Shown here in pieces: positions 5,461 through 64,000 of a stretch of DNA of 64,000 nucleotides; the stretch's first letter is position 1, and the number at the start of each line of letters is the position of its first letter. The DNA lies in contig JBAZNR010000001.1 in assembly GCA_041649175.1 (NCBI GenBank), forward strand, positions 258,332-322,331, written 5' to 3'. This DNA comes from Candidatus Omnitrophota bacterium (GTDB taxonomy: Bacteria; Omnitrophota; Gorgyraeia; Zapsychrales; JBAZNR01). Under the pieces are notes generated by a model. That model worked only from the letters and a program-made list of their open reading frames with translations. It was not told where the DNA came from and ran no database searches. The position numbers were made by a program, and so were the translations under genes.

Positions 5461-5646
5461 AAAAATTTGATGGTGAAATTATGCCACGAAACATAAATTA
5501 GTCAATATTTTTCTAAGCCTAAGCCTCATCTTTTTATTTGCATTTTATTTTAAAGTGTTTTAAGATGACATCGGTTTTTGCCGCCGTTTTCCTAATTATT
5601 TACATTCAAGATCATTCTCACAATATCCACTCATCAGGAGAATCTT

Positions 5647-5847
5647 ATGAAAATTATTTTAAATGGGCAAGCCAAAGAAATTGCGGCCGCGTCTAATTTA
5701 AAGCATATCATTGAACAGTTTTGCCAGGATGCTAACCACGTGATCGCTGAGCTTAACGGCGAGATTGTCCGCAAACAACATTGGGACGGTCAATCCATTA
5801 AAGACGGCGACCGCTTAGAACTTGTTAATTTCGTTGGGGGCGGATAA
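5647..5847 (+). CDS. thiS: sulfur carrier protein ThiS
   Basis: 66 aa ending in a GG C-terminus (VNFVGGG). It is followed by thiG. Confidence 0.8.
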
Positions 5848-36402: not shown

Positions 36403-36479
36403 CACGCCTCCTCTGTTGGATGATATTGTTTTTATTTCCACATTTCGACTGAACATTTATCTTCTCCTTTCGATCAAGA

Positions 36480-43500: not shown

Positions 43501-46500
43501 GATGAATCTTCTCCACAAATAATGCATCGAAAACACGGTTCTTTGAGATTCCGCCTTCAAGGCCAGGTCACAAATCCAATAATAAATTTCTGTATACCGG
43601 GCAAAAACCCTGTCGTACTTAATAAGCGTCTGGCGCAAAACCTTCGCGCGGGCTTCATTATCTTCCTGGATTGAATTTATCAACTCTTGCGCTTTTTCTC
43701 CCGACAGAGGATTGTCGTTATGATCTTCCGCGATTTTCTCAAAGGGAGAATTTCTTAGGCTGCGCCAAATCACTTCATCTTCCAGACATAGTATTGATTT
43801 TGAAAATCCCGGATCTCCCTGACGTGCCGTGCGATTAAATAATTGTTGGTCTTGGCGCCCAAACTTATTAGGTTCTGCCTGAATCACGACAAGCCCGCCC
43901 ATTTTGGAAACTCCTTCGCCTAATTTAATATCTTCTCCACGGCCCATCATGTTTGTCCCGACGGTAACCATCTTCTTTTGCCCGGCAGTAGCCACAATAT
44001 CAGCTTCTTGCCAAGCGTTAATGCCGTTTAGGACTTGGCAAGAGATCCCGTTCGCATTTAACAGCGCTCCTATTTCATTGGCTGTTTCAATATAACAAAC
44101 ACCAATAAGCACAGGATTTCCCTTAGCGTGCCATTTTTTTATTTCCTTAAGAACTTCCTCATATTTCTTTTTCTTTGTTCCATAAATCACCACGCCTAAG
44201 TCAGTCCGGCGGCAAGGCTTATTACGCGGGATAAAAGATGTCTTTAAGCCATAGTATTTCTGCAATTCATCCTGCTGGCGGCCAATACTTCCGCTCATTG
44301 TTGACGCTCTCTCGGCAACAGATAAGAAAAAGTGATGCTGCGTCATAATAAGCGCCGGGTCATATACTTGCGAAACGGGCAAATGCTCTTTTGTTTCAAT
44401 AAATTGATGAAGTTGTAAAGCCCAAATATGTTCCGGATGAAGCCGGCCCGTATATTCGTCCACGATCACGATCCTGCCATTTTGCACAACATACTCTTTT
44501 TCTCTGCGATAAAAATAATGGGCTTCTAGCGCCACAAAAATAAGCCGTTCAAAATATTCCTGCAAAGCTTTTTTTCCCTTGGGTGTGAGCAAAGCTATTT
44601 GCCGATAATCTAAGCGATAATGAACTCCCTTTGCTAATAAGGATTTATAAATATTGTTACGCGCCATTTCGACGGGATCTTCCTCTTCCTTTTGCTGATG
44701 GTCATTTTTGCTGATCCAGGAAATGACCTTGACAGTGTCGCGAAACCACGCATGATCGATATATTTCACGATAAAATTTTCTACCAGCTTTGCGCGCGCG
44801 TTTTTTCCTTTCTCGGTAAATCGGACATGCTTTGTAGCCGGATTTAAAATGTAATCTTCCCCCGGTAAAAGCCTATTTAAGGATTCCTGATAAAGGATCT
44901 TGTAAAAAGCACCCATATCCCATCCGTCTTTGACCGTCGTTATGATAGGCTCAAAAGCATTATCAATAAGTGTTTCATCGCCTTCATCAATAACGACAAA
45001 AGAAATTTTTCCGGGCCGGCGTACTTGTTGCTGCGCGTCCGTAACTAAATGATCTCGTTCTATATCGTACACAAACTCATCATTAACGCCGTAAGTGATA
45101 TCTGCCGCGTAGGCTTGCTTTCGATAAAGCCGCAGATTCTCTTTTTTGTTGTGTCCATTGCCATTTCCATTCCCATTTTTAGGAACTTCTAAGGGGCGTA
45201 AATTTTTATAATGCGCGCTGCCGTTTTGATAGGAAGGATCGAAAAGGTACGACTGGCCCCTGACAACAACACCGACGCTTAATCCTAAGAAATGATATAT
45301 GCCGCCCATATCATGAGCATCACGCAAGGCAAGATTTTCTTTAACCGTTGCCACATAGACGCCTTGCTCTTTTAAAGCATTTAAGTAAACAGCCGAAACG
45401 GCCGCTAATGTTTTCCCTTCGGAAGATTCCATCTGGATAGCGCGGCCTTGATAAAGTTGAAAGGCCGCCAAAAGCTGAACATCGTAAGGGCGCATTCCCG
45501 TTACCCTGAAAGCCGCCTCACTGACAACCGCAAATGCTTTCGGCAAGATCTCCTCCAAGCTTCCTCCGTTTTTAAGCCGCAGACGAAATTCTAATGTTTT
45601 GGCCCGCAATTCTTCGTCAGAAAGACCTCCAAGCTCTTTTTCAAGTTCTCTAATGCCGCTTAACAAGAGATTACTAAAAAGAACCTCATTTTCTGAGGGC
45701 AAATTATTAACATCCATAACCTTCGAGAGAGAAAGCCCAAAGTTTTTAGCCAAAACATTCACCACATTTCTAGCAATGCCTAATTCTTTGGCAGAAAGCG
45801 TTCGGTTATTCTTATTTCTCCAAAGTGCGCGTATGCCTGCCCACTCTTTAAGCTCTTCCAGCGCCAAATACAGCGTTGGCTCATCTAAAATAGCGATGAA
45901 ATTCTCTTGTGCTTGCCGCATATCACCCTCGGAATAATTTTTCATCAAAATCCTTATACCTCTTGTGCTTATCTTTAACATTTTTGCGGCTTCGGTTTTA
46001 TTGCGGCCGGCCGCTAAAAACGCGTGAAGAACGGCTCTTTTCTTGATTTCATCCCATGTTAAGGCATCGTTTTTAGCAATGTTCAAATACGGCAATATAA
46101 AAATAAAATCATGAAAGGTGTTTTGGTTTATTTGATATTCGGCTATTTTTTGATCTAAATCTTCCTTTGACAGTCCTAAGTTTCTTGCCGCATTTTCTAT
46201 ATCACCGCCGCATTTCGCCAATGCAAAAAGAATTTGTTTTTTCTCTTTTAATGTCAATTCTGCGACGGGGTCTGATTCTTCTCGGTCTTTTTTTGATCTT
46301 TTGCTAACCGCCAAAACCGCGGCGGCAAAAACCATCTCCGTTGGGGCGTGAGGAAAATAGCCAAACACCGTGATCAAGATAAGAACCGCGCCAAGAGGAT
46401 AAACAAGGTTGTAAATCCTCTTTTTCTTTAAAATAGAATAGATCCTCCCCCGAAGATATCTCTGCAGCATAATGGGGTAAAGATTGCCGAAAATATTAAA

Positions 46501-49500
46501 GATCCCTAAAACAGAAAGTAAAATCATTCCCGCTATTTGAATAATTCCTGTTGTCAGCAAACTTACGGCCAATAATCCGCCCATGACAGAAAGCACGATC
46601 AAAGAGTATATGTAGTGGATCGTTTCCATTTCCCTGGTTGTTGTCTCTTTTCTTTTTAATGCCTCAGCGGAGAAGTGATCGACAAATACACTCGGCGGTA
46701 ATTTCTTAATATCTCTCAGCAGCCATTTTCTAAACATCTTGATCCCGAGAAGCTCATATAGTTTGCCGCTTCGTTCGAAGAATTTCGGCTTAAAAACAAA
46801 CTCAGCCCGACGAGGATCTTTTAAAAATACATTCACTAAAGATGTGGAGAAGTAGGAAATCACAAGAACACCCGCAATCAAGATGAGAGAAGCTATCCCA
46901 ATAAGAACGGCCGATAAAGAAATAATAGCGAAGGATTTAGAGGAAAGAATGGTGGTGGCAAGAAATATCGTGGAATTCATCGACCCAGGGGCGAAATTTC
47001 CAAACAGATATTCCAGCATTCCCCAAAGTACCACAAACCCTGTAAGCCCAAATCCGATCCAGCCGTGAAGCTTTTCTCCATCAAGCTCTTTTAAAGAATC
47101 GTCTTCTTGCCGAGAATGAATATCCTCAAGGATGTTCTTTAAAGGTTGATGAACTCTTTGGACAGAAATAATTTTTGGGCGCAAGTATGGTATTTCTCTC
47201 AATACTGCGACACTCAGCCGAGGAGAAAAATTGCCCACTTCAAAAAAAAGATTAGTTCGGATATTGCGAAGTGCTAAGCCCCCGATATACGCACTCTTGC
47301 TCTTACCTAATTTTATGCCTGGCCTCATCACTTCAAAAGTACTACCATTCGCCCCATTAAGCACATCACCCATTTGCAAATCTTTAAGTAAAAATTGATC
47401 AGCAGGAATAGTGAGGGTTGCCATTTTTTCTTCTTGTGAAGGAGAGGAAGGAGCCTGAGCCAAAGAATTTACCGGAGAAACACTTACTACCGCTGTTAAA
47501 ACTGCGGCAGAGAAAATAAAGCGTGGGTTGAGATATTTTATCGGTGGCGCCTGGGCGAAATGGCCGAAGAGATATCCCAAAACTCCCAACAATCCTACAA
47601 ATCCAAACAACACCCAGCTGCAAAGTGCGGTTTCTTGGGAATCTAATACAAAACCTTTTGTTTGTTCTTTAGCTGACTGAGATCTATCAAGGGAACTCTT
47701 CCGAGCAAGGGCATGACCGGCTAAGACAATAAATTCGCCATTTCCCACCGGGAAGAGCAGTTTATTAGCTATGAAAATGTAAACTGCTTTTTTCATGTGC
47801 TCTGTAGATTTAATGATTTCCAACGAGGCTTTATCCAAGATTCTTTCCAAAGTTAACCGCGCCCCAATACCTGCCGCAAGGCAACATCGTTCTATTTCTT
47901 GAAGATCAACCAATACAAATTCGCCCAACGTCCCTAGTGCTTCTTTTGAGTTAATTTGAAATCTTTTTTGGAATCTGGAAATATATACCGCAATCTCTTC
48001 TGGAGTAAGAAGTTTCTCCCATGCCCTATCGGGTAGCGTGATAGACGAAACATGTTTTAGACGCTTAAATTCCCCGTTCATTCCGGGAAGAGCTAAAATT
48101 AAAATTCCATTGCGTTCATATCGAAATATAAAGCCGCGCTTATAGCTTAACGCCCCTAATATTTTTTTGATGGTTACGACAGAATTGATCATCGACAACG
48201 GCACTTGATCATAAACGATAAAAGTATTTTCCGTAAGGCCGTTAAAATAGATCGATAGCATGTCGACCCAAAATGATTCAAAATTGTCTAGGATTGGCTG
48301 GCTTTGTTCTCTGGAAAAACCCCAAACTTCAAGATTACGGATAAGTTTTTCATCTTCCCGCAAAAAAAGCGCAGGAACACTATTAGAAACACTTTGTGGA
48401 CGACTTGCTGAGCGTTTACTTTTTCCGGAGGATCGTTTTGAAGATACTCTATTTTCTTTCTGACTACTCTTTCTTAGAACATCATCTTCGTAAATCTTAT
48501 TCTTAATATCTTCCAGCAAGTGTTGTAACTCGCGGATACGAACCAAGAATCTTAAATCATCAATACCTTGGCTTAAAGGATCTAGTTGCGACAATGCCAT
48601 CTCGGCATCTTTATGATCAAAGTATTCTTGATAAATTTCGATAAGCGCCTTGGTCTTTGAGCGTAATTTTTCTGCATTCGCATCAGGAAAATTTTTCTTA
48701 GGAGCCCGCAAAGCAATCCATTGACTTAAACGTACGTCTCTGGTTTTTGTCGGTTCCTTAAAAACCGGAATGATATTCTTCAAGTCCCTAGCAGGAGGCA
48801 CCTGCCGACCGATATATGGATCAATTAGGTCTAGTAGCGCCTTAAACCGTGAGCGTGGCAAAGTTTTAAGGAAGAACTCGGGATTACTATCAATAAGCTG
48901 AGCAATTTGACGTGATGTAAATCCAAAAAGGCTTAAAACAAGATACAAGAAATGGAGGAAAACGACAGACTCTAAAAACCTTTGCTTGGTCCAATTTGAA
49001 ACCCGGTACCAATACGTGCGGCTAAAAGAAACCCCGTAGTTTTCAGGAATACGCATCCGTTCTAAAATCTCTTCCGGTAACCGAAGCCTTTCCCAAACAA
49101 CATCCGGAACAGGCCCAATATATTCCGCATCATCTCGTCCGGATAGAACAGATTCTTTTCCCGCCTTGTGCTGCGCCTGTATTTCTCGTAATTCTTTCCG
49201 AATCCTGTCTTCCTTATAATTAGATATTATAAGAGCAGAGATGGGCATTTTGAATTCATCCTGAAATATTCTTGCCTTCCTTAAATATTCCGACGGAGAA
49301 ATCTTTCTTTGGATATATTTCGGAAGTCTATGATATTCAATACCGCGGGCACGTAATTCTCTTAAAGCCGCCGGACGCCCGCTATTGCTCATTTCTTTGG
49401 CTACGCGCATTTTTTTGTTCTCGATCAAAAGAAGCCTTTGGCTATGCGCTGGCTCTGCAGCCAAATCACACCGTAACGGTTTAAATTCAACGACTAAACT

Positions 49501-52500
49501 CCGCAAAGGCCTATTTTTTAGAGTTCCAAAATCAGCCTCGGTAGCCAATCGAAATACCGCCCAGGCATATTCACCCGGATTTCCTAAAGAAAAGCTTAAT
49601 CCTTCAATGCCCTTACACCAAAGGCATGTTCCTAATTGCTCATGCTGGGCTTTACGCAATTTAACTAATTCCCTAGAGGGAATCGCCTTGGTAAATTCTT
49701 CAACGTATAAACGTAATTCGGATTCTATTTTCTCATGGGAAGGAGTTTTGCATAAACTTAACCCCAAACTCTGACAACGCGCGCGAACTTGATAAGGCCA
49801 TTGTCTTTTTCTTAAACCATCAAATGCTTTGATCATTTCTGTTGCCGTCGGAAATCTTTCATGAGCAATCGTTAAGGATTGATGAGCCGTACGGTATTCT
49901 TGATCGGTTGTCACCGATCTTCTTGTGCTTGTTTCCTGTTTTACCGTCGCCCACGCCATACCCAAGGGCGCGAAAAGAGGCAAAAACGCAAATCCGTGAA
50001 GCTTTTCTTCCGTCATTCCCTCAACCGCTTTTTCCCAGTAATCAAAAGAGTCCCCGATAACATCAGAATAAGATTCATTCAGTTTCTTAAGTGCCAAAAA
50101 TAAAGCTGTTGCCTGATCATTTAATCCAACTAAACGTAATGATTCAAGGATTCGCGTAAGGCGTAGAAAATTGTCATTCGGTGAAGATAGCCAAACACGG
50201 CTTCTATTCTTAAATCCCGGGCTATGGACGACGCGCAGGCCATTTTGACTGTTTCTTAAGGCAAGCCCATAGAAGGAAAGCATGACCTTAAGGGATCGGA
50301 TCATATTTGATCTAAGGTTTTGACCGATTTTTGTATCGGCACGAAAAGTATCGGCAGTTTCCCGGGTTAAAACAGGAGGAACAACCTTTTCTCCTAGGTT
50401 ACGGCCCATGATTTCCCACACAAAAGCACCAAGGCTTTTTGTAGGGAACAATAACTGTATAAAATTGTGGTCTTCTTCAAGCTGCTCATGGCTAAATCGC
50501 CAAATATCACGAATATATCTTCCTTCGTGGTCTGTTCTTCTTCCCAAATAAAAATCAATCAGTTTGTCATTGAATCCTGTAAGCGGCCATGAGTCATCCC
50601 CCACCGTTCCTAGGGCCGGCAAGCAGAATAAAAGCGAAATAAACGGTAGCCCGAAACAACAAAGAGCTTCCGATACAATTTTCCTGTTTTCCAACACCAC
50701 AAATTCTATTTTCCGTGCCGTGATGACATAATATTCCGTCGGGAAACCTTTGCTGTCGTAAACCTGCTTAACGGTAATGCCGCTATACCTTTGAGATCGC
50801 TCAAAATAGTGTAAAACTAAATTTATCCTTTCTTGGGCAGAGTGATGATCATTCCACGTTTTAGTTCTTGCTGAAGGATCGGAACGGTCGTCAAAAACAA
50901 CAGCAAAAGGCGCGCCAACTTTTAAAATTCGGTTAACCTCTCTAAAAAATCTCCTCGGCTGTTTAACATAGGCAATGCCGTTTTTCATCAATACGCCCGA
51001 AGCGTAATCATTCGCCAGTAATCCTAGCCCCCGATTGACATCAAAAACAATGCCTTGGGTGAGCCTTTGATTTGCGCGTAATTCAACTTGATTTAACCCG
51101 ATGCCAATAAATTCTCCCTGAAGAGTGCGCGGAAAATATGTCTTAGCGCCGCTCATCAGGTCAACAAAAATAGGTTTTTTGATCCGATGATCATTTTTAA
51201 AAATACTCATTAAGGCATGTTCAATGGCGATCTCTTGTTCAGTATTGGTATAACCGATCAAATTAGGCTTCTGCCAAACGGAAGATAGGTTTTCTACCGT
51301 CCCCCACAGCCCAAACGGCAAGAAACAAGCAAGATTATTTTGTTTCTGGAAAATATAAGCTCCATTTCTTGCCCCACCGTAAGCAGGGCCGTTATAACCA
51401 AAAATAGCCCCCTGTCTTTCTAACCCCAAAAGAACACCATCTTGCACCAAGGTTAGTAACCCGCGTGCGCTACGCTCCATAGCCCTGTCGCTATCAAGAA
51501 TGACAAATCCTCCGGGCCTTAAGAACTCTTCAATAAGCCGAGCTGATAAAAGGAATTTTCCGTCTCTAATATAAACATCACCGGCTTTGATAATGATAAG
51601 ATCAACCCCTTGGGACGCTTCAAGATGACTTCGATAGGAATCAACGGCTAAACCATCCGTTTTTTCAACAAAGATCAAAGAACGCTCTTTTCCCTGCAGC
51701 ATAAAATTCAAACTGAAAGTACCCGCGTGGTGGCCGGTCGAATTTAAATCAATATCAGTCACACCGCTTGCCCTTAGCTCTTTCTTTAAAAATGGCCATA
51801 TCCCTTGGCACATCCACAACAATTCATTCGAGATAAAACCCATTCGGCTTTTTTCTATTAAATACAATTCGATGATCTTATCTTGGTGTATGGCGCAACG
51901 CGGATCAATATCATCCATCTTGCCGCCTGTTAGCATCATCATAAGCTTGATCATCAAAAAATATTGAAGAAGCTGCTGTTGTTGCTCTTGAGAAACTGCA
52001 TTTAGATTTGTGTGAAACGGAAGTTTTTCGATAAAAATAAATTTGGCGGCATTGGTCGTAACCCAAGCTGTAGAAAAATCAGCGGCCGGCCCGATCAAAA
52101 GCGCCACTCTTTGTTCATTGTCTCTCATGGTTTCTGCGCTGTTAACAATTTCGCGGATACGGCTCATGTATCGGAAATTCAACTCTCCGCCAACCAACAT
52201 TTCCACGGACCAGATTGCCGATGATCGATCACCGCTTCTATTGCCCACCGTCGCCCACACTAAACCTAGCGGCAGACAGGCCGACAGTATAAAGCAGGAA
52301 AGTTTTTCTTGCTGTGCCGGCGAAGCGGAACTATCAGCAAAAAATTCATCCCAACCGCTGTCCATCCAATCGGCCTTCTGAATTAAACCAAATTTAGCGA
52401 CAATTTCTCCCTTTAACTCACGCGTGCACATGTTTAAGTTAACGCTCATGCTCCCGCTAGAATGAACCACGGTTGTTCCGACGCGTTGTGAGATTTTCTC

Positions 52501-55500
52501 GCGAGGATTAAATCCCGCGCTTGTTAGTTTCTTAAAATCGAAACTCAAAACTATCGGCTGACTGGCATAAATCATACGATAGCCTTCTCCGACAGCACCG
52601 GGAGAAAGAAACGCCGCTACATCTTCTGGTTCATAACCGCTACTGCCCTCTTCGACAAACGGATATATTATTGCGCGCGCATGCATATCGGCAGATGCCG
52701 CTTCAGTAATCAGTTCAACATTCCCTCGGCCAAAAACCCAGCCTTCAGTTTCTAATGCCCTGTCAACAATCGCCGTAATTGTGCCATGATAGAAAATAGG
52801 TTGGAGAGGGGAAAGCGTTTCGTCATTTTCCGCGTCCACCGTCCCCCACGCCAGCGGTAGTGAAAACACAAACAGCATCACAAAAGCAAACGTTCCCTGA
52901 AGTTTATCATCGTGTCCGGTATTTTGAATAATCAAATCCCAGCGAGGGTTTAATTCTCTCATCTGAAGGTCTATAGCCCACCAACGGGAAGCATATTCAT
53001 CGTCGGCTTCTTGGATCCTGTAAGAATTAATTTGGTCTTTCGAAATGCCTTGGCGCTCAAAATATCGTCCATAGGACGCCAAGCGGGAGATGCCTTCCGA
53101 ACGTTCGATCAAGATATGGATATCCGGATCTAAATCGTGATGGTCCAGCCATTTGGGCGCATGGTAACCTTCGACCACGATCACCTTGGCTTCTTCGCGA
53201 TGTTCGTAAGGTAGTAAGAATTCCGGATTTTCTTCACTGTAAACACTGACATGGTGGCGGAGAATTCCATCCAGCTCTCCTTGAGCAATTAAACGGCTTA
53301 AAGTTGTTTTTCCGCGCGCAGGCAATCCGCAGATACTGATCACTACCGGTTCTTCGCCCCTTTCTAATCTCTCCTCGATCATAGCGCTTAATTCTTTTAA
53401 TCCCTCCCAAAGATCATTAGCGCGCCGCGGAGCGGGTTTTCTGGCCCAGACAACCATATTGTGATTCACAACAACGGCAAGATCGGAAAGTTCAAAACCA
53501 TAATCGTCGTCGGTTTCCTGATTAGCGGTGTAAGAGCCGGATCCCACTTCGAGATTTAATTCCTTTCCAACTGCCTTAAGCATCTCTTCGTATTCTTGTG
53601 CCGTCATCGGCTTGATGGATGGATCTCGATTAGTTGCTCCTAAAAAGTTACTGGGCCCTTCATCCATACTGCGATATAGAATAACGATGTATCCGCCCTC
53701 TTCCAAAAGCTCAAAAGCTTGCTTCAAGATTCTCGCCCTGTCTTCCGGAGAATAGAAAAATAGGACGTTAGCAATGGTGATGATATTAAATTTCTCTGCA
53801 ATACCGTTTTGATTCAGCAGATCTTTTATATTGAGAATATCTCCTTCGATAAGCCGGATCTGTGTGTTGGCGCGAAACGGCTCTAATTTTTCTTTTGCCC
53901 ATTTGAGCATTTCACCGGAAATATCCACGCCGACAATTTCGGCGGCGCCGTTTTGCGCAGCCAATTCAGCGACCATCCCGGTTCCCGTCGCCAAGTCCAG
54001 AACTCTACTTCCCTTAACATGATCGAGCGGAACAGCCGCACCAAAAATAGATGCCGCCGCTTTCCTCATTGCCACTTTTACGCCGATATCATAATTCCGC
54101 CGAACGGCAAAACCATCGTATTGTCTTTTGAGGTTTTGCGCGGTAGATAAAGATTCAAGATACGCATCAATGTCTGCTTGTGTTAACGCCGCGGAAAATA
54201 TTTCCCGTTCCCAGCTCATCGTCGAACGCACGAGTCCATCTTGAATACGTTTTATTTTTCTTTCGTCAAAATTAAATCCTTCAAACCCCTGGCCTATTCC
54301 TCGTCGAATTCCGGAAATAAAAATATCTTCCTTATCGCTATTTTCCGGCTTTGCCAAGTTTTCCGCGACACCGCTAACCAAGACAATATGTTCCACAAAC
54401 TCTTCATCAGGATAATGACGGACAAATGCCGCAAACGCTTGTCCTATTTGTTCTGCCATATCATTAACAAATAACATGGTAAATTCATCTTTCGAATTAA
54501 CAGCGTTGCTCATTCCCCTTAAAATGCTATCAACGGCGCGAGCCTTCAATATCTGCTCATCTTCGTTGAGTGAATCTGTAGCGCTAATTAAACGCGATAA
54601 ACTTTCATAGTCGGTAACACCTTCGGGAAGTTCTATATATTGCAAAGCCAAACGATTGTCCCCAACAGCTTCCATAAACGCCGCGGCAATCTTCGGCCCG
54701 CCGAACAGGTCTTCAAAATCAACTCTGCCTTCATGCTCAACGGGATGTTGCCCCTTAGCCGTAAAGCCAACAAATTCCCATTTAAGCGAAGGCAAAGCAA
54801 ATGGCCCATTGTCATGAAAAGTAGCTTCGATAACATGGCCTAATTCTAAGATCTCATTTTCTTGCCCAAAATAGGGTTTTCTGTTTTTCCCGGCTGTTCC
54901 ATTATTTCCGGTCCCTAAAATAAATGCCATACCATCTTGGACTTGCGCCAATCCTCCGCGAGGACTGAATTCTCCCAAGAGAGCCGCTTCGCAATCATTG
55001 TAAACAGCCACTGCAATACGATAACCGTATTGATCATTAAGTTTCTTCTCTAGCACGTCTTTAAGAGGATAATTTTCAAACGGTAAGTTAGCCGCTTTAA
55101 ACGGTGTTCCGACGATGCCGCGATAAGAATCCACAGGACCGGCAAAGGCAATTCCAATTTTTATAACTTTTTTATCCGGCAAGCCGGTGATGATATTTTC
55201 AATTTGAAGCAGAATGCCCTCAATGATATTGTCACTGGTCGCAGATGCCGTGTATTTTTCTTTCCATTTGATAGCGTCCACAGTCGCAATGATATTCCCT
55301 TGTACATCTACCGCCCCGGCGCCGATCTTAGTTCCACCCAAACTGATCCCGACAGATACGACTGAATCTTTTATAGAGAAAAGTGCTCCCATCGGCAAAA
55401 AGGCCGAAAGTTTCTCTGTCTTTTGCCCACTACCATTGTCCTCATCCGAAATGATTTGCTCAGGCCGTCCATCAAAATAAACAGCTTTCCAGTGTAACCC

Positions 55501-58500
55501 GTCGTAAACAACAACGCCCGCGTTACGCCCAAATTCGAGATGTTTTTCAGCCAAAATAATATTGGTATTGATGACCTTGCCATTTTGAGTCCAGCGAATT
55601 TCTTTCGCCTCTTTGTGTCCGACGATCTGCGGCAGTAAAAGATTTTCCGGGGTTAGATTAAGTTCATCATCAAAGTCAGCCCAAATAATACCGCCTGGTT
55701 TATACCCGCTTTGCCCGCGTTTTTTGGGGCCAAAGTGGGCATTGCCGCGCTCAAAAACAATATCGCTAAAATTATTTGCCCTAATCGCCTCTACTAAACG
55801 ACGATTCAACTCTTGGGCAATATCTTCCATCGGCAATAAATTCGGCCGATCATTTATTTTTATGGCAATATCTTCATCGGTTAGTTCTTGCGGATCTTTA
55901 TCAAGTTCCTGGGCAATGAGAAGAATTGATTCCGGATGAAGTTTCTTAAGTAAATGCGCCGTAATATGCGGCAGCATTCCACCATGAACCATTAAGCGGT
56001 CGTGGATATGAAAGGCGGCCACCATTTCACCTGAAAGAATGGAATTTCGCATTTCCGGAATGATTTCAGTGGCTCGCTTATCTTCCGGTTTTCCCTGAAA
56101 ATGCTGGAGCTCATGATTTCCGACAAGCGTTACCAAACTATTAGCCTTTGATAAAGCCTTTCGATGCAGCATGTGCAAATAACGATACAGCTCTTTTTGA
56201 TATTTGCCGCGGTCTAAAATATCCCCGATCACCACAACCGTAACGCCGCACACTTTCCACTCATCATTCATGAAATCGCTTCCAAATTCAATGATGCCAA
56301 GCTTACTTAAGGCATTGCGCACGCCCCACAGCTCTCCGTGGGGGTCACCAATGATAACCGTTGTTACGGCGGCTAAGGTTTGCGCTTCAAGCAATTCCCC
56401 TTCAACTCGAATAATGCCGTCCCCAAAAGTAAGCGAAGCGTTTGTCCATGTTTCTCCTTTATCGGTGGAAAATACCGGCCGGATAGAATATGATCCCGGG
56501 CGGGTCATGAGCACTCTTGCCTTAAAAAGATAGTTATTACCCTCAAATCTTAGGAATTCCAGAGGAGTGAAGGAATATGGGGCTTCATCTTCGAATTTAA
56601 TTTCGAGAGTTGCCGCTATGCTATGAGCAAAAATAGCGTCGTGAAGTTTCCGGGAAACATACGCCTGAGCATAGATCTCTATCATTTGACCGGATACGAC
56701 TTTAACCGTTTTTCCGGAAAATGGGCCGGCATAACTTTGTGCCGCGATATCCAAATTGCCGGCCCAAACAATTGGGGCATGCCCTAAGTCGCGATTAAGA
56801 ATTCGTGCAAAATCAGCAATGGAGAATTCTTCAAGCTGCATTAACTCCCCGGCCAGGTCCAACCGGACCTGGGCCCACTCTCTTAAATTCCATTTTTGGT
56901 GCGCGACCCATGCCCCCTGCAAAAGTTGAGTAACAAGATAAAAATAAACCCTTAATAGAAATAACTTTTCCGCATCCAAGGACAAATCAACTGGGGATAA
57001 ATGAACCGTGCGTTTAGAATATGTTAATCCATATCGCTTTTGATAAGTCGTCAGAAATTCGTGCATCAATTCTTCGATGTGCCCTATCAATAAGGCGTTA
57101 TTTTTTCTGGCATCAATAAGGCCCAACAGCGCGTTGGCTAATTCTTTTGTTGCCGCGTCAAATCCGCCTAATTCAGCATCGATCCAGGCCATCACGTGGC
57201 CGGAGTCGCTATCAACAAACCAATTCCAGGGGAAAGGATCGCCGTGAGTAAGAACTTTTTGCTCACCTAAAACAACGTTGTAAAATTTATTGAAGAAATC
57301 TATAACGGCGGGAGGATGAACCGAGGCAAGGTGCTCTTTGAACTCCGGGTTATCGATCATGCCCATTATTTTGTCTAACAATGTCGCATAATCGCTTCTT
57401 GAGACCGGCTGAGCCGTTGGATAGCTTTTGTGAAGGCGCGCTAAGCCGCCGGCGGCGGAACGTAACGTTGCCTTAACTTTTTCAATATCAGACCGGGGAC
57501 GATGTAAAAAGCCAAATTGACTTATTAACCCTAATCGATTTAAATTCTCCAGAACAAGAGCCCTGGCATTGTCATTGAATAATAGAAGATGGGGGCGCTT
57601 ATACGGATTAGCCTCAACAAAAAAACATTTCTCGGCTTCATAAGCCTTGGGGGCACTTGTTTTGTCCATATAGATCTTAATAATGTATTCCCCCTCTAAG
57701 GCTTCAAAAACAATGCGGCTTTTTACCGAGATCAAAACTCTCCCCTTTAAGTAATTAACTAACTCCGGCAAGCTCATATCACCGGCGGCAAAGAAATTAA
57801 GCAATTCTTCAATGTATTTTAATTCCTCATCTGGACTCTCTTGCTCTTTGACCATCGCCCAAAACCCAAGAGGGAAAAATATTCCGGCAAAACCGTTAAG
57901 AGATTGTCCGTCTTCTTCATCCGACAATAGTTTACCGATCTTGGCTCTTAGCAATCCTACAATCGCGCTATGAAGCTGGGAAATACGGCTTTCTGTTAAA
58001 TTTAACAACCCCCCGATTTCTCTCATGCTCATGCCGTTAAAATAGTATTGTTGAATGATCGTACGGTCCCGGGCGGGAAGCTTTTCAATATATTCACGCA
58101 AAATAGAAACTTTTTCTAAGGCGACAACCCGTTCGTGAATGTCTTCATCCGACGGAAATAATGCTTTTAAAGAATGTAGATCGTTGCCTGTCGTTCTTGA
58201 AATGAAATTATCCAAAGAATCAAATCCGCTTTGACGGGCATAAATAATCGTACGCAGCTCTTCGATCCCGATATGAAGCTCCGCCGCTATGGCTTCTTCC
58301 GTCACATATCCTCCGGAAATAGCAGCCAATTTATCCACCGCTTCATTTAATTTATTGATTTTGGCATACATGCCACGCGGCAAATGATCTTGGGAACGTA
58401 GGAAATCGATGAGCTCTCTTTGAATACAGCCAAAAGCGTAAACTTCAAACGGAACATCTTGGCGGTTATTGAAATCCCTCGCGGCCGTAAACAGCCCAAT

Positions 58501-61500
58501 AGAAGCTACCTGCTTTAATTCTTTGAGCATTTGGGAATCTTGTTGAATTTTTTGGGGTAGTTTTCGATAAATATATCTGGCAACGCGATCGGTAAGATAC
58601 GAATACTTCTTTATCACCTGTCGATATTTGTTTTCTTCTTGGTTTTTCTCGTAAACAGCTTTTTCGCTTTCAAAATGAATGCCATAAGATTTAATTCGCC
58701 ATTGAAGATTTCTTCTCGACAAACCAAGCTCCTGGGATGTTTGATCCTTATCGAATTTATTTTCCTGCAAAGCATTCAATATTTTCTGACGTTTAGCCTT
58801 GAATTTAAACTCCCGATGAATTTTTTTCACATCAATTCTTAGTTTCTTTAAGTACTTATATAAAACTACCTTACCAATATCCAGAAATTCGGCTAACTTA
58901 GGAACATCGCCCTGAAACTGGTTAAGCAAAGCTTTAAGAACTTTCTTTCTTTTCTCTCGGATAGTTCTTCTTACAGGAGCATCGGAACGCAATCCTGATT
59001 TTCTTATATGGCCATATAAAGTCCCTTTTCCGATTTTTAAGAATTCGGCTAACTTAGGAACATTATTCTGGAACTGATCAAGTTGGATCTTAAGGGTTTC
59101 CCTTCTTTTGTCTCGAACAATTTCTCTCACGCGAATGCCGGCGCGCAATAATTCACTATTTAATACGGCCCTGTCGCATTCGAGAAATTCGGCGGTTTTC
59201 GTAATATTCCAGTCATGCTTTTCTAAAAGCTCTAATAATTGTTGTTTTCGCGCTTTTTTATCTTTTCGTTCCAAGGAGAATAACTTATAGCGGCTAAATA
59301 ATAATTCCCGGAGGTAGCCCTCACTCACACCGCGAGCTTCGGCTGTCTTGGCAATATCATCACCGTGCGCTTTAAAGTCTTCACGCAATTGTCTTTTACG
59401 ATTGCGTTGTTTTTTCTCACCCGGACGAATACCATAACGGCTAATCCGAGAACGCAGCGTATGAATGTTAATATTTTCACCTTTGGCTAATTCTTCGGTA
59501 TCCCAATGATATTTGTTGAGTAAACGTAAGAATTCGTTCTTGCGCCGATCTCTTTTTTCTCGTCGCTTAGACCTTGGATGGTTAGGAGATTCTTCTTTTG
59601 TATTTGCAACCATGCCAAACACAGCAAAAGGAAATATAAAGCTATTAAGGGCTTCTGTTTTCTTATTCGGCGAAACAGGTTTTAACCGAATTGCGAACGT
59701 GGTTCCCTCTCCCGGAGTAGATCGCGCGACAAAGATCTCGCCACCCATTCGCTCGATACTACGTCGCGCGCCGCTTAATCCAACACCAGTCCCATCCATG
59801 ACAACTTTCTTGGCCTGATCAGTGCGATAGAAAACTTTAAATACCTTCGCCATATCCTCAGGGGCCATTCCCATACCATTATCGACAACATCAACCCGGA
59901 CCCAAGTTGTTCCGTTATTGTTCTCCTCGGAAATACCGATTTTGACCAAATTACCGCCGTATTTTTTGGCATTTGTCAAAAGTTCGATCATCACCTGCTC
60001 TAATTTCTCCTGATCTATTAATACCGGCATGCGTTGCTGAAGAATATCAACAATAAATAATGGATCGTGTACAACAGCTTCTCCTGAGGTTTTGACATGG
60101 TTCTTAAGAAAAATCCTTGGCAGCCATGAAGCTAAATTAACATCCTTTATAACAACGGCCGGCTCAACGATCTTTCCGGAAACTAGATCATGCAGTCTTG
60201 TCGTTAAAAGCATGAAAGTTTCATAGGAAGATTTTTGTTGTTCTTCTGCTTCCACCTCCGGGATCCGTGATGAGTCCAGCAAATCCCGTGTTGCGTTAAT
60301 AAAAGTAGTCAAGGAATAGTACGTCACTCTCAGGCGCTTAGTCTTTTGCCCAATATCAATACGCAAAATGATCTCTTCTCTTGTAACTCGAGCGAGGTCT
60401 TCCATAAGCTGATTGAGAGACCCGCTATGAACCGATAAAGCTTGCATTCGATATTGCTGTTCTTCGCCGGGAACTGCGTCTAGATCCAAACGGGAAAGAG
60501 CCCCTAACATGCTTTTTAAGAATTGAGACAGGATGTCGATCTCATTTTCTCTTAGCATGCTGAGATCTTGTTCGCCGTATTCCTGTAATAGGCTCCCCTT
60601 TCTTTCTACTAAACCTTGCCAATCTTGTGTTTGGTTCATGAATTCCCGGGAAACAAGCTGAAGTTTTGCCAATATATCGACAAATTCTGGAAAACGCTTG
60701 GCGGCTTCATAAAGCCCTGATAGATAATTACGAATATCATGAACGGTTTCCACGATATTGTGGGCGTTACGGCTCATATTCAATGTATTCTCAACACTCG
60801 CGTCTAAATTAAGCCGGTCCATCACCAGCGTAACTAATTGCGCTATCATCAAAATGTATTTCGTTTTAAGCTGTTGGTCTTCTTCGCTATAAAACAAAGG
60901 CTGGGAAACGGATAGATCGGCCGATGAGGCGGCTATTTGCCAATTATCCATCATCAGGATGTAAGAAATTTCTCCGCTAAACGCGTCAATAATACCGATA
61001 TGAAACACCTCTTCTACGCGCCCCGCGTGCTTACCGCCGAAATGAACGCGGTCGGATTCAAACATAAGCCTATCAACAAAATGTTCATCATCCATTAGCC
61101 CATTGTCGCCGATAAAATGATCACTGCGTTTCTTGGTATGCAATAAAAGCGGCTTCCCCTGAGCGTTCATGCGCTCAAAAGTATTGAGCGCTCTTAATTT
61201 CTCATCGCTGGAATCAGAAAATACTTCTTTGTGACGGCTGGGGCGAAATCCACCGCGCGAGGCATCCAAAACATGGCTGACCTGCCAAACATTGTCAATT
61301 TTTCTAACCTTGTAAAGCCTAGCCCGGCCGATGTGCAGGACTTGAATGATCGCTTTACTAAAGATATCCTCCACTTTTTCTTTGTGTTTAACGGAGAAAA
61401 GGGCTACCGCCAATTGAATGAGATTTCCCACATGCCAACGCGACGGCGAATAATCGACCAAGTTGCGCACGGCTGCCCCTGAGAATAAAACATCGAAAGA

Positions 61501-63996
61501 CGCGCCAGCCAAAGCTATTTGTTCATTATTGGACATACGCCGCAGAGCTTCGATATGTACCTTTGATGAGCGCAAGACCCGTAAGAATAACCCCATGATC
61601 TTTTGCGCTGATCTAAGCGGCCCGCTTTGATCGATCACCTCTTTGAGTATCTGGCGCGATAAATATCCCTTTGAATAACTTCCCGATAATTCTTTCAGGC
61701 GTACCTTAAGGGCAAGGACAGGTGTAATGAAAATATGGTTTACTCTTCCCGAAATATCGATAGGTGCCGAGGTTTTTAATTGGAAATTCTCCAGAAGAAG
61801 GCTCATGGTCTCATGTTCTTCCGAGGCTTTTTGAAGCGCGGTAGAAATATTTACTTTCTGCTGATAAGTAAGGTCTTGGACTTGGATCTCGTTTTGTTGC
61901 GGCAAAATTCCCTGCTCAGCACCAACAAGGCTGTCGCGAAGCGCATCTATTGCTTCGATCAAATCCTGATTAGCGATTTGCAAATTGGAAAAGACGGAAT
62001 TGATATTTTCCCACTCTTTATTCTTCAAAACCCGACGGAAGAAAACCCTAAAGATCCCTAAAGCTAATATTTTATCGCCTACGCGCAACCGCCTTGATAG
62101 CATCGTCATGTCAAGATCAGAGAATCTTAAAGCCTTTATTTGCCTTTTACCAATGTCCATGGCAAGATCATTTAACTCATTTTCAAAATCATCGTCTAAG
62201 GAAAGTTTATAGTCACTAAGAGCTTTTAGATAGACCCTGAATTTCCATGGATTATCTCTAAAGTAAAGAATGCTTTTGTGGCGGGCTAGGGCTTCCTCAT
62301 CGCCATCCAAATGCGAAAATTCATGGCGGAAAATATCTTCGCGGATAACCCAAGAAAGGTCAAAGTGTTCGGCAGGAATATGAGCCAAGTGAAAGAAATA
62401 TGGATGTAAGAATATGGTTTTGATTTCCCCATCACTGAATGCGATGTGGCTACGGGTCAGATCAAGGTCGGTGGTGATAACTAAACGCCAAGTACCTACG
62501 GCCGGCGGTGCGCGTCCGTTTTCGCTAAGGCGTTTAAAAACATTTTGCATAATTTCAAAATGCCCATCGTAAAAACCTTCAGGATCCGTTAAATCAAACC
62601 CGGATATGAAGACATCGGTTAATGTCTTTTGAATACCGAATTGTTCATCCGCCTTCTGGGCGGCTTCAGCCGGAACGCGCAGAGGATAAGCGGCAGTAAC
62701 AGGAAGATTCTCCGGACAGCTGTTATGAGGAGAAAAGTCATCATTTACATTACTCACCATTCCGAACAATGCCGGAATTAGTGAGTCGAATATATTTCCG
62801 ACTGAAGGACAGAAGCATGCCAGAGAAACTTCTTCTAATCTTGTCAGCAGAAATATTTCCTTGGGATCATATCCGGTCAGCACAATAATGTTCTCTCTGG
62901 CGAGAATAAATCTTTCCACATGAAAAACGTTAGGAAAGATCTTAAAGGCCCGTTGAACACCTTCAAGAGACGTAATATAAAAAAGTTTCCTGTGACGGAT
63001 AATTTCTTCTATGGAAACAGTTTTTCCAAAACCTTTGCTCAGTAAATACTTAACGATGATCTGTAGGTCATCTCGGATAAACTCATGTAAATTCTCCCTG
63101 GCTTCGCGCTGAGATTCAATCTTAAAATCCCGTTTGATCCTTTCAATGGAATGTTCGATTTCCTGCCCGCTTAATAAACCTTGAATAGCTTTATCGCTGA
63201 CAGATATATTTTCAATTTGTCCCATTGTAGAATCTTTAGGCAGGCTTTCCGCTTTGGGAGATCTTAAAATTTCAACTCCGTCTTTAAAATACCGGAAAAC
63301 AAAGCCGTAATCTTGGCTTAAAATGCCTAAAATCCGTCGGGTAATCTCAGTAGAAGCGGCAAACTGTGAATATTTAACAATGTCTTTCCCCTTTTGCCCG
63401 GCTGAATGAGACTTTACCATTTCCAGATATCTCGCAAAATGAGAAAAATAGGCAAACTCAATATTGCGTAATATTGTGCGGATTCTATCATTGGATAAGT
63501 TCCATTTTTTAGTTAACAACTTTATCAGATTCCGACGTTCTTGATGCGTTAATATAGAAATCTCTTGCTTACTGACTACAGTAGCACTTTCTTTCTTTTG
63601 GCTTGAAGCGGCCGCTAAGGATTTATTGCGGGGCTTAGAGGATTCCTTTTGCTTTTGAAGAGCCGCTTTTAAATTATCCAAGCTGAGATGAGTTATTTGC
63701 TCCAAAACCGGCTCGAAACCAAATTCTTCGTAAATGAGAAGCTTTTCAAAGAAAGAAGACGGCGTATTTCCGGCTCTTACCCATTTTGGAAGTTCTTTGT
63801 AAATATAGCCTTTTCGCTCTAATTCACGCAGTGCAAATTCCCTATCAACGCCAAATTCTCTTTTCACTTTGACAATCCCATTTTTGATGCTCAGGTAACG
63901 CTGTGCGTGGACAGGTTCTGTTTCTTGATCAGCCCCATAAGGCTTGAAAGACACAATAAGATCACGGCTTTTATTAATTCTTCTAAAACTAATCAA
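40576..63996 (-). CDS. giant multidomain protein of at least 7,806 aa; signalling, enzymatic and SecA-like mosaic; N-terminus unresolved at the window edge
   Basis: A single stop-free reading frame of 23.4 kb in AT-rich DNA. The first in-window codon is TTG and the frame stays open to position 64000. Recognisable domains are listed as separate entries below. Confidence 0.85.
   Translation of the reverse strand: [7806 protein letters not shown]
42037..42609 (-). other. giant ORF domain: C-terminal array of three Fis-type HTH motifs
   Basis: [91 protein letters not shown] (aa about 7130-7320). A further pair lies at aa about 5910-6020, just before the SecA-like module. Confidence 0.55.
43297..45669 (-). 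other. giant ORF domain: complete SecA-like motor (NBD1 with Walker A, NBD2, helical scaffold)
   Basis: [76 protein letters not shown] (Walker A rc verified at about 45400-45430); [45 protein letters not shown] (DEAD-like); NBD2 [16 protein letters not shown]...[15 protein letters not shown]; scaffold [20 protein letters not shown]. Each matches a canonical SecA signature in the expected order (aa about 6110-6900). Confidence 0.75.
46297..47634 (-). other. giant ORF segment: cluster of about 8 predicted transmembrane helices
   Basis: [150 protein letters not shown] (aa about 5455-5900). Confidence 0.6.
50077..50589 (-). other. giant ORF domain: OGFr_N-like (opioid growth factor receptor conserved region) domain
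   Basis: [44 protein letters not shown] resembles the ..H.YIQWLFPL.E.G.N...P.LT core of PF04664 (aa about 4470-4640). Confidence 0.4.
52897..53355 (-). other. giant ORF domain: P-loop kinase (Walker A [9 protein letters not shown], 6-phosphofructo-2-kinase/zeta-toxin-like)
   Basis: [17 protein letters not shown] (rc verified at about 53300-53345), at aa about 3548-3700. Confidence 0.55.
53662..54039 (-). other. giant ORF domain: class I SAM-dependent methyltransferase fold
   Basis: Motif I [11 protein letters not shown], then GVDIS, LIEGDI and EEGGYIVI (aa about 3320-3445). Two or three further MTase-like folds follow at aa about 4040-4220 and 4250-4430 ([10 protein letters not shown]...[21 protein letters not shown]...[11 protein letters not shown]). 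Confidence 0.55.
54637..55374 (-). other. giant ORF domain: ROK-family sugar kinase fold
   Basis: [28 protein letters not shown], ELGHV (aa about 2875-3120). Confidence 0.65.
55597..56364 (-). other. giant ORF domain: PPP-family calcineurin-like metallophosphatase
   Basis: GDPHG (IIGDPHG), GDxxDRG ([10 protein letters not shown]), GNHE (LVGNHE), HGG (MVHGG), at aa about 2545-2800. Confidence 0.7.
56737..57819 (-). other. giant ORF domain: aminoglycoside-phosphotransferase/choline-kinase-like kinase fold (APH family)
   Basis: [42 protein letters not shown] matches the HGD...N and (I)D(F/W)E..G.GD..DLA catalytic and activation motifs of PF01636 (aa about 2060-2420). Confidence 0.6.
57922..58599 (-). 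other. giant ORF domain: sigma-70 family factor-like (regions 2, 3, 4)
   Basis: Region 2-like [41 protein letters not shown]; region 4 [45 protein letters not shown] (aa about 1800-2025). Confidence 0.7.
58642..59529 (-). other. giant ORF domain: array of four Fis-type helix-turn-helix motifs
   Basis: [94 protein letters not shown] (aa about 1490-1785), in a basic, Arg/Lys-rich context. Confidence 0.6.
59677..60009 (-). other. giant ORF domain: GHKL/histidine-kinase-type ATPase (HATPase_c)
   Basis: N-box [11 protein letters not shown]1 VDNGMGM (rc at about 59868-59886 verified), G2 GTGVGL, at aa about 1330-1440. Confidence 0.7.
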
Positions 63997-64000
63997 GATC

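Follow-up and report, generated by a model that had tools for sequence, protein, structure and literature searches.

Background

The giant open reading frames (ORFs) of the Omnitrophota raise the question of whether their products act as one chain or are cut into pieces. We address it here for a 64-kb stretch of DNA from a Candidatus Omnitrophota bacterium (contig JBAZNR010000001.1, positions 258,332 to 322,331 of the forward strand; this whole stretch is hereafter called the window), in which a train of enzyme domains is encoded on the minus strand at positions 50677..57819. In a preliminary description, these domains were placed in one polypeptide and interpreted as a tailoring assembly for a glycan, lipid or nucleotide-like substrate. 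The existence of such an enzyme train is in itself explained by the known giant multi-enzyme ORFs of the Omnitrophota. What stands out in this locus is a recurring hydrophobic peptide at the boundaries between self-contained cassettes, and the finding that junction peptides at cassette boundaries vary between lineages although the cassettes themselves are homologous. The explanation favoured overall, to which we give an about even chance, is a string of independent cassettes with recognition or processing junctions, and the junctions thus provide concrete candidate sites for the question stated above. If these sites were confirmed, the "largest bacterial proteins" would become "operons written as polyproteins", and the junctions would offer a principled segmentation of the giants for annotation and structure prediction.

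Giant ORFs of the Omnitrophota were described as "Archaeovorins", in which a divergent SecA DEAD domain and many hydrophobic segments occur together with enzymes such as methyltransferases and glycosyltransferases (West-Roberts et al. 2023, bioRxiv 10.1101/2023.11.21.568195). A class 1 of "multi-enzyme metabolic clusters" was subsequently proposed, in which methyltransferase, HATPase_c and ROK are among the commonest Pfam families; in the same work, approximately one transmembrane helix per 370 aa was predicted for the giants and glycoside hydrolases were found to flank them (Nielsen & Lui 2026, bioRxiv 10.64898/2026.06.07.730766). Cleavage of the giants by S8 or C39 peptidases was left as an open question, the cleavage points being unknown (West-Roberts et al. 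2023, 10.1101/2023.11.21.568195).

Junction peptides and cassettes of the giant ORF

A reading-frame check placed the entire interval 50677..57819 in frame within a single minus-strand ORF listed at 40576..63996, so the train does belong to one polypeptide, as had been proposed. The visible part of this ORF comprises 7,806 codons (23.4 kb) with no in-frame stop and one terminal stop. Immediately upstream of the listed TTG there is no stop codon; the frame therefore remains open at base 64000, which places the true N-terminus outside the 64-kb window. Residues are numbered from position 63996 throughout, the interval of the train corresponding to aa 2060-4440.

Between the domains, we identified a recurring hydrophobic peptide with the consensus (E)KLx[GCAS]F...PLGxxW[AG]TV, which contains approximately 13-22 uncharged residues and is followed by polar or acidic residues. 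A hidden Markov model (HMM) of this junction found eight copies, all of them in the giant ORF, and none elsewhere in the six-frame translation of the window. When each copy was left out of the model in turn, four of the eight still scored 8.5-20 bits, two others 2-3 bits and the last two only weakly, whereas no score in 20 shuffles of the protein exceeded -1.8 bits. The ORF and its junctions are as follows.

40576..64000, minus strand: giant ORF of at least 7,806 aa, with no in-frame stop and with the 5' end beyond the window
59584..59673, minus strand: junction j1 (aa 1442-1471), directly after the end of HATPase_c (aa 1439)
57832..57924, minus strand: junction j2 (aa 2025-2055, ...SLNGFAGIFFPLGFWAMV...), immediately followed by the upper bound of the train
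55354..55431, minus strand: junction j3 (aa 2856-2881, ...EKLSAFLPMGALFSIKD...), found by the junction HMM
52819..52923, minus strand: junction j4 (aa 3692-3726, ...DKLQGTFAFVMLFVFSLPLAWGTV...), found by the junction HMM and weak in the leave-one-out test
52228..52326, minus strand: junction j5 (aa 3891-3923, ...EKLSCFILSACLPLGLVWATV...), found by the junction HMM
51277..51357, minus strand: junction j6 (aa 4214-4240, ...NNLACFLPFGLWGTV...), found by the junction HMM
50584..50685, minus strand: junction j7 (aa 4438-4471), within which the lower bound of the train falls
49924..50025, minus strand: junction j8 (aa 4658-4691, ...EEKLHGFAFLPLFAPLGMAWATV...), found by the junction HMM
46987..47661, minus strand: two variant junction-like elements (aa 5446-5480 and 5637-5670), with a shared N-terminal part and another C-terminal part

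The variant elements read E[KT][AL]Lx[GCS][FW] in the N-terminal part and G[VM]L[GE]YLFG[HN]FA in the C-terminal part. Both bounds of the described train coincide with junctions, namely j2 and j7. The junctions separate the following cassettes, in order: helix-turn-helix (HTH) and sigma factor domains; an APH-like kinase with a beta-sandwich and a PPP phosphatase; a ROK-like module with a methyltransferase and a P-loop domain; and the cassettes M3, M4, M5 and OGFr_N. Each of the cassettes from the APH-like kinase to OGFr_N is self-contained and corresponds to one to three free-standing enzymes. Besides the junctions, no internal repeats were detected in the giant ORF by BLASTP at E<1e-3.

Several other interpretations of the junction were tried and rejected. 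Its copies differ at synonymous sites, and it is therefore conserved as a peptide and not as a DNA repeat or mobile element. A function as a marker of internal start codons is inconsistent with the Val codons, which are GTC, GTG and GTA. Known sorting signals (PEP-CTERM, GlyGly-CTERM and others) were not recognized, as ten peptides gave no NCBIfam match at E up to 10. A prepilin-peptidase site, with a cut between Gly and Phe, is unlikely, as there is no Glu at +5 and many copies have Cys, Ala or Ser in place of the Gly.

Junction motifs and sites for polyprotein processing are not mentioned in the literature that we searched on such giants, and neither West-Roberts et al. nor Nielsen & Lui describe junction peptides or cassette boundaries. 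The anatomy of cassettes and junction peptides thus looks new.

Enzyme modules of the train and their catalytic residues

The modules encoded between j2 and j8 are listed below.

56797..57762, minus strand: APH-like kinase module (Pfam and motifs), homologous to aa 1385-1787 of the protein P0001
56392..56796, minus strand: probable beta-sandwich attached to the APH module and conserved with it in P0001
55432..56379, minus strand: PPP-type metallophosphatase (Pfam and motifs; weak PDB matches are PPP phosphatases)
54172..55353, minus strand: ROK-like ASKHA module (Pfam PF00480, PDB 3vgk)
53422..54129, minus strand: class I S-adenosylmethionine (SAM) methyltransferase 1 (Pfam and motifs)
52924..53409, minus strand: putative P-loop NTPase or nucleoside-kinase-like domain (aa 3530-3691; Walker A/B motifs only)
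52327..52818, minus strand: cassette M3 (aa 3727-3890, approximately 165 aa), of no recognisable family or fold
51358..52209, minus strand: cassette M4 (aa 3930-4213), predicted divergent class I methyltransferase fold (AlphaFold2 and Foldseek)
50686..51276, minus strand: cassette M5 (aa 4241-4437), Methyltransf_11-like (profile and homologues)
50017..50514, minus strand: OGFr_N domain, cassette M6 (aa 4495-4660; Pfam E 4e-17), equal to free-standing proteins of approximately 175 aa elsewhere

The APH domain (Pfam PF01636, aa 2172-2291) scored 26-30 bits against a cutoff of 23.2. It retains the beta3 Lys (YIIKIY, aa 2104), the Brenner motif HGDPFPWN (aa 2251) and the Mg-binding IDAE (aa 2272), and the latter two are also conserved in P0001. 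For the adjoining beta-sandwich, a weak similarity to the N/S domain of GlgE was found (E 0.003). The metallophosphatase (Pfam Metallophos/PPP, aa 2546-2686, E 2e-9) possesses all five PPP motifs: GDPHG at 2550, GDILDRG at 2591, GNHE at 2626, HGG at 2671 and GH at 2794. This arrangement, together with P0001, where the unit of kinase and sandwich is conserved but followed by a HAD-like segment, hints at kinase-phosphatase pairs that might act on sugars, which we offer only as a lead.

The ROK-like module matched PF00480 at aa 2882-3057 with 44-48 bits (cutoff 22.9), the match covering only profile positions 2-160 of 294, i.e. the N-terminal half, and aligned to a Streptomyces glucokinase structure (PDB 3vgk) with E 2e-10. 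Its catalytic Asp (YNDCEAA versus ENDANAA in 3vgk) and the GH pair (aa 3053-3054) are kept, whereas the phosphate-1 Asp is replaced by Ser (ISLGGTK versus VDIGGTK). The zinc motif GHx(9-11)CxCGxxGC is missing: no Cys occurs within 80 residues after the GH, and the alignment with 3vgk ends at the His. With Ser in place of Asp and without the zinc cysteines, the module appears partly degenerate.

Three methyltransferase folds follow. Methyltransferase 1 (aa 3328-3447, E 1e-16) retains motif I (VLDLATGTG), post-I (VGVDIS) and motif II. For M4, no Pfam match was obtained and an M4 profile found nothing among PDB sequences, so that this cassette was placed by structure search alone. The AlphaFold2 (AF2) model, computed from a family alignment of eight sequences, reached a predicted local distance difference test (pLDDT) score of 83 and a predicted template modelling score (pTM) of 0.85. 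The top Foldseek matches of this model in the PDB were all class I SAM methyltransferases, namely the methyltransferase domain of OvoA, Dot1L, NNMT and fibrillarin (E 6e-5 to 1e-3, probability approximately 0.99, with TM-scores of only 0.3-0.38). Together with a motif I (GPAAD) and a post-I Glu, the model identifies M4 as a predicted class I methyltransferase at the level of the fold only. M5 matched Methyltransf_11 weakly (Pfam E 0.007); a three-sequence profile matched the SAM methyltransferase PDB 1vlm with E 4e-4, and the homologue P0125 carries PF08241 in its precomputed annotation. M5 has DLMSGA as its motif I and no acidic residue at post-I; the cassette is nonetheless strongly conserved with its homologues.

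Two further modules are less well characterized. The putative P-loop domain, described earlier as a P-loop kinase, has the Walker A (GLPARGKTT) and Walker B (VIVVEG) motifs, but its similarity to families is not significant (E-values 0.02-0.1, over the P-loop only), and a PDB sequence search with aa 3530-3691 gave no significant match. M3 gave nothing significant in Pfam, NCBIfam or PDB sequence searches. A single-sequence AF2 model of aa 3530-3897, which spans the P-loop domain, the junction and M3, was unusable (pLDDT 37.6). The OGFr-like domain that had been assigned to the train proved to be a solid OGFr_N match but lies approximately 160 nucleotides (nt) beyond the lower bound given for the train.

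The APH-like kinase, the PPP phosphatase, the ROK-like domain and the three methyltransferase folds of the preliminary description were thus recovered by Pfam, PDB or Foldseek evidence, and their attribution to small-molecule and sugar enzymes agrees with the domain matches and with a carbohydrate-oriented gene neighbourhood. Pfam scans of the whole visible ORF detected no carrier (PP-binding), condensation or ketosynthase domains, in line with the earlier statement that carrier and condensation domains are lacking. The conservation of catalytic residues, which had been suggested as a check, was found for the Brenner motif of APH, for the PPP motifs and for motif I and post-I of methyltransferase 1, and failed for the ROK zinc site. 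As judged from their motifs, the catalytic residues are mostly intact and not systematically lost, as they would be in a scaffold of pseudo-enzymes. The likely activities of the cassettes are phosphorylation of sugars or small molecules, dephosphorylation and methylation. No cassette reached the curated or equivalog cutoffs of NCBIfam, and hence no substrate can be assigned to any of them.

Shared cassettes and lineage-specific junctions in other proteins

An exhaustive HMMER search with aa 3530-4700 retrieved homologues of single cassettes only. M4 is related to P0122 (53% identity), P0147, P0123 (three copies), P0184 and P0255, and M5 to P0124 (59% identity) and P0125, a 59%-identical M5 cassette being present also in P0272. 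For OGFr_N, hundreds of free-standing proteins of approximately 175 aa were retrieved. Both OGFr_N and M5 equal complete stand-alone proteins or cassettes elsewhere, and the M4 family occurs only in multi-cassette Omnitrophota proteins. P0001, P0122 and P0123 are annotated as Omnitrophota. A scan of genome contigs additionally retrieved the locus L002 with a 51%-identical M4; the corresponding scan of metagenome contigs with the M4 alignment gave no locus. In a word-indexed homologue search, the whole region retrieved only P0001, and M4 together with M5 retrieved only P0124.

Outside the shared cassette, P0001, P0122, L002, P0124 and P0272 are not homologous to the giant ORF. In P0272, M5 is preceded by a kinase-like module and not by M4. 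In P0001, the unit of APH and beta-sandwich is conserved and is followed by a HAD-like DxDGT segment at the place of the PPP phosphatase. Since single cassettes are shared in different company and order, these comparisons indicate that cassettes are shuffled between Omnitrophota proteins. No close relatives of the region were found in the genome contig and metagenome contig collections, which agrees with the published estimate that approximately 80% of such giant proteins are sequence singletons (10.64898/2026.06.07.730766).

The eight copies of M4 start and end at the same alignment columns, and their flanks vary by lineage: PLGxxW[AG]TV in the giant ORF, [AS]SSP[VL] in P0122 and P0147, and DEAM[LV]T in P0123, P0184 and P0255. 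The SSP and DEAM motifs are strongly over-represented: P0122 (2,874 aa) contains 12 of the SSP type and P0001 contains 8, and P0184 contains 8 of the DEAM type. The three junction types are mutually exclusive, the SSP and DEAM types being absent from the giant ORF. The motifs are located just past the ends of Pfam domains, e.g. HATPase_c ends at 2126 and the motif begins at 2130 in P0184, the corresponding positions in the giant ORF being 1439 and 1442. L002 has four copies of its own hybrid junction, SSP[IV]LPxxLxLGL..SALASLLGxSEPGAVAH.

L002 (CALGLP010000023.1, 56305-77201) spans 20.9 kb and is open in one frame throughout its 6,965 codons; this frame continues past both ends and shares only M4 with the giant ORF. 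P0184 (L004 10001-21163; 3,720 aa) and P0255 (1,526 aa) are complete Omnitrophota proteins with a signal peptide and a common N-terminal domain, in which DEAM[LV]T separates cassettes for an aldo-keto reductase, PfkB, HATPase_c, a low-molecular-weight phosphatase and M4. The anatomy of the latter two proteins implies that the design of cassettes and junctions is not limited to the very largest ORFs.

Other domains and class of the giant ORF

On either side of the train, Pfam scans identified further cassettes, and in total at least 12 different domain types tile the visible giant ORF.

57946..60015, minus strand: upstream cassettes with HATPase_c (aa 1328-1439), several HTH_8 and sigma-70 r2/r4 (aa 1803-2017)
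43915..46797, minus strand: downstream cassettes with a CrtO-like membrane acyltransferase (aa 5734-5858), HTH_8 and SecA DEAD/PP-binding/P-loop (aa 6111-6694)

The SecA unit comprises SecA_DEAD (E 3e-58), SecA_PP_bind (E 2e-14) and P-loop_SecA (E 4e-38). SecA_SW reached only E 0.008, which is under its cutoff, so that no clear wing/scaffold domain is present. Clear long transmembrane clusters were observed at aa 5007-5884 and aa 7412-7668, the CrtO-like acyltransferase lying inside a transmembrane cluster at aa 5687-5884, and the first 1,441 aa of the visible part are free of strongly hydrophobic segments. A sigma factor within a giant membrane-associated protein is odd, and the two giant-gene papers do not mention sigma-70; OGFr_N is likewise not mentioned in them.

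The origin of the window from an Omnitrophota genome is supported by MnmG (9254..11146), which is 100% identical to P0002, a protein of a metagenome-assembled genome of "Candidatus Omnitrophota", the next-best matches being also from Omnitrophota. Given this genome, the combination of SecA DEAD, methyltransferases, ROK, HATPase_c and hydrophobic segments, and the glycoside hydrolase and sugar-import genes nearby, the giant ORF and its enzyme train belong to the published "Archaeovorin / multi-enzyme" giants of the Omnitrophota and are of a kind that is already known. We hold the cassette-plus-junction anatomy together with this class assignment with high confidence. The visible 7,806 aa (23.4 kb) exceed the 20-kb criterion (Seymour 2023) and are below the thresholds of at least 10,000 aa (Nielsen & Lui 2026, 10.64898/2026.06.07.730766) and >30,000 aa (West-Roberts et al. 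2023, 10.1101/2023.11.21.568195), the full length extending beyond the window. Like the published giants, this is a very long ORF tiled with diverse enzyme families, among them methyltransferase, ROK and HATPase_c, and the two share the phylum, a divergent SecA DEAD domain with PP-binding, hydrophobic segments every few hundred residues, glycoside hydrolase and sugar-import neighbours, an association with S8 peptidases, and poor sequence conservation between genomes. They differ in that the S8 proteases are encoded here by separate genes and do not form an N-terminal domain, and in that genes for a type II secretion system (T2SS) or pili are absent from the 40 kb downstream within the window.

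Proposed processing at the junctions and alternative explanations

We propose that the junctions are recognition elements and most likely processing sites, and that the cassettes would act as separate, mostly catalytically competent enzymes. The layout of the junction resembles the n-h-c organization of a Sec signal peptide, with a Lys, 7-15 hydrophobic residues and a Pro or Gly at approximately -4 to -7, and a rule-based check showed that, ahead of T-V, positions -3 and -1 are occupied in most copies by small or aliphatic residues. Moreover, a conserved site is repeated at the boundaries of units, eight times in the giant ORF, and [AS]SSP[VL] or DEAM[LV]T stands at the homologous boundaries in relatives. 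According to the mechanism proposed here, the product of the giant ORF would be a polyprotein cut C-terminal to W-[AG], and cleavage at its internal signal-peptide-like junctions would set free a mixture of kinases, phosphatases and methyltransferases. The candidate protease would be either signal peptidase I or two co-encoded secreted S8 subtilases acting in trans.

32476..40493, minus strand: two paralogous S8 subtilase + FG-GAP proteins of approximately 1,330 aa each, with a Sec signal peptide and an intact D/H/S triad

Both subtilase genes lie directly downstream of the giant ORF on the same strand; with the likely Met start, the gap to the giant ORF is approximately 80 nt.

Several observations weigh against processing. 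The likeness of the junctions to signal peptides is rule-based only, and two of the eight are weak in the leave-one-out test. The hydrophobic KLxGF...W[AG]TV type was absent from every other retrieved protein. Pfam scans found no protease domain within the visible 7,806 aa. Whereas the S8 proteases are secreted, the cassettes, in need of ATP or SAM, look cytoplasmic. In the only relative locus with readable context, a metagenome contig (L001, JGI 3300009329 Ga0117912_1006309), the import gene set is the same as downstream of the giant ORF but S8 proteases are missing. This locus encodes P0124, the C-terminus of a giant, followed by PilZ, a sugar solute-binding protein (SBP), two permeases and MFS_2. 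Finally, in published analyses hydrophobic segments of this kind are read as transmembrane helices, at a density of approximately one per 370 aa that matches the spacing observed here (10.64898/2026.06.07.730766). Cleavage itself is thus put forward tentatively, as an event somewhat less probable than not. The broader generalization that the giant ORFs of the Omnitrophota are true bacterial polyproteins, whose lineage-specific junctions mark cleavage and whose cassettes would be released, perhaps extracellularly or into the cells of a host or prey, is also rather less likely than not.

The published DeepTMHMM/TMHMM view suggests another explanation, in which an uncleaved megaprotein is threaded through the membrane, the junctions serving as transmembrane helices and the cassettes alternating between the cytoplasm and the periplasm or cell surface. 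The junctions are indeed hydrophobic, five of the eight passing the Kyte-Doolittle threshold, and their spacing of about one per 400 aa is the match just mentioned. The giant ORF also contains the two clear transmembrane clusters and a SecA motor, and the four junctions of L002, with 21-25 hydrophobic residues, could span a bilayer. Against threading, the uncharged stretches of four of the eight junctions do not exceed 15 residues even when the trailing T-V is included, and all eight have a central Pro or Gly. Furthermore, specific residues are kept (KLxGF, PLG, W[AG]TV), whereas a membrane span needs only hydrophobicity, and the equivalent boundaries in relatives are hydrophilic (SSSPV, DEAMLT). 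Because kinase cassettes adjoin each other, as do methyltransferase cassettes, strict alternation would place ATP- or SAM-dependent enzymes outside the cell. Many predicted localisations were called unlikely by West-Roberts et al. We consider threading unlikely.

A similarly low probability is assigned to an uncleaved cytoplasmic arrangement of "beads on a string", in which the junctions would be monotopic or re-entrant hairpins that pin the cassettes to the inner face of the membrane near importers. This arrangement accords with the short hydrophobic segments and their central Pro-Leu-Gly, with cassettes that are all of cytoplasmic type, which satisfies the cofactor logic, with the lack of strongly hydrophobic segments in the first 1,441 visible aa, and with the sugar importers encoded nearby. 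However, the hydrophilic junctions of relatives at the same boundaries argue that anchoring is not the common role of junctions, the conserved W[AG]TV and KLxGF suggest that the junction is recognized by a protein, and the adjacent secreted subtilases would be left without a role.

The tailoring assembly of the preliminary description, in which successive domains would work on a single substrate (glycan, lipid or nucleotide-like), for example to modify the cell's own envelope or that of a prey, has poor prospects. It is consistent with the folds of the train (kinase, phosphatase, sugar kinase and methyltransferase) and their mostly intact catalytic motifs, as well as with the carbohydrate-oriented gene neighbourhood, and the junction-free fusions APH-sandwich-PPP and ROK-methyltransferase-P-loop could be real functional units. 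On the other hand, the train was cut out arbitrarily from an ORF that extends over at least 7,806 aa and also strings together HATPase_c, HTH_8, sigma-70, an acyltransferase and SecA. Its junction-bounded cassettes are found singly in relatives, none of which conserves their order or company. No common substrate can be inferred. In addition, no cassette is an NCBIfam equivalog with an assignable substrate, and the ROK module lacks its zinc site. Within single cassettes, whose domains are joined with no junction between them, tailoring may hold, but a coherent assembly comprising the whole train is not supported.

That the modules are degenerate pseudo-enzymes serving as filler or scaffold, or that the long ORF is an artefact of assembly or annotation, is scarcely credible: the loss of the zinc cysteines and the phosphate-1 Asp in ROK and of the post-I acidic residue in M5, the high divergence of all modules and the lack of a close homologue of the ORF in each of three collections would fit, but the motifs of APH, PPP and methyltransferase 1 are complete, M4 and M5 are 51-59% identical to cassettes of other genomes with invariant motif residues, which implies purifying selection, 7,806 stop-free codons are impossible by chance next to genes that use stops normally, and comparable long ORFs are documented in complete genomes (10.1101/2023.11.21.568195; 10.64898/2026.06.07.730766).

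Comparison with other multidomain systems

Three known types of large multidomain polypeptides can be compared with the giant ORF. MARTX toxins are multi-effector trains with RTX-type repeats, whose effectors are freed by an internal cysteine protease domain (CPD) at Leu-X sites. In both cases, a huge polypeptide is composed of unrelated enzyme modules that fold independently, have short sites between them and are reshuffled from strain to strain, and membrane-interacting regions are present. In contrast to the toxins, the visible part of the giant ORF has neither a CPD or other protease in cis nor RTX-type repeats, its junctions are hydrophobic and signal-peptide-like, and delivery into another cell would here be pure speculation.

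The polyproteins of flaviviruses and pestiviruses contain internal signal sequences that are cut by the host signal peptidase. The giant ORF resembles them in possessing internal n-h-c elements with a small-x-small pattern between the functional units of one translation product. It differs from them in its location on a bacterial chromosome and in its enzymes, which are mostly of cytoplasmic type; the likeness is rule-based, and cleavage is only proposed here.

Nonribosomal peptide synthetase and polyketide synthase megasynthases share with the giant ORF the great length and the presence of many catalytic domains in one chain. Unlike them, the giant ORF lacks carrier, condensation, ketosynthase and acyltransferase (AT) domains of the megasynthase type as well as repeated modules, and the order of its cassettes is not conserved.

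Gene neighbourhood

The neighbours of the giant ORF include genes for glycoside hydrolases of families GH94 and GH2, a sugar ABC importer (SBP and two permeases), MFS_2, and LacI and ROK regulators. At 13810..15069 (minus strand), a canonical ROK protein is encoded as a free-standing gene product, with a full-length Pfam match of 128 bits. The possibility that the ROK-like module of the train is a recent duplicate of this local gene was rejected, since there is no significant similarity between the two. Between the GH94 gene and the sugar ABC importer, a secreted protein of 1,086 aa without a Pfam match is encoded at 25386..28646 (minus strand). It consists of six repeats of approximately 170 aa (LxNxGFENGLxDW...YFDD) and is probably a carbohydrate-binding repeat protein.

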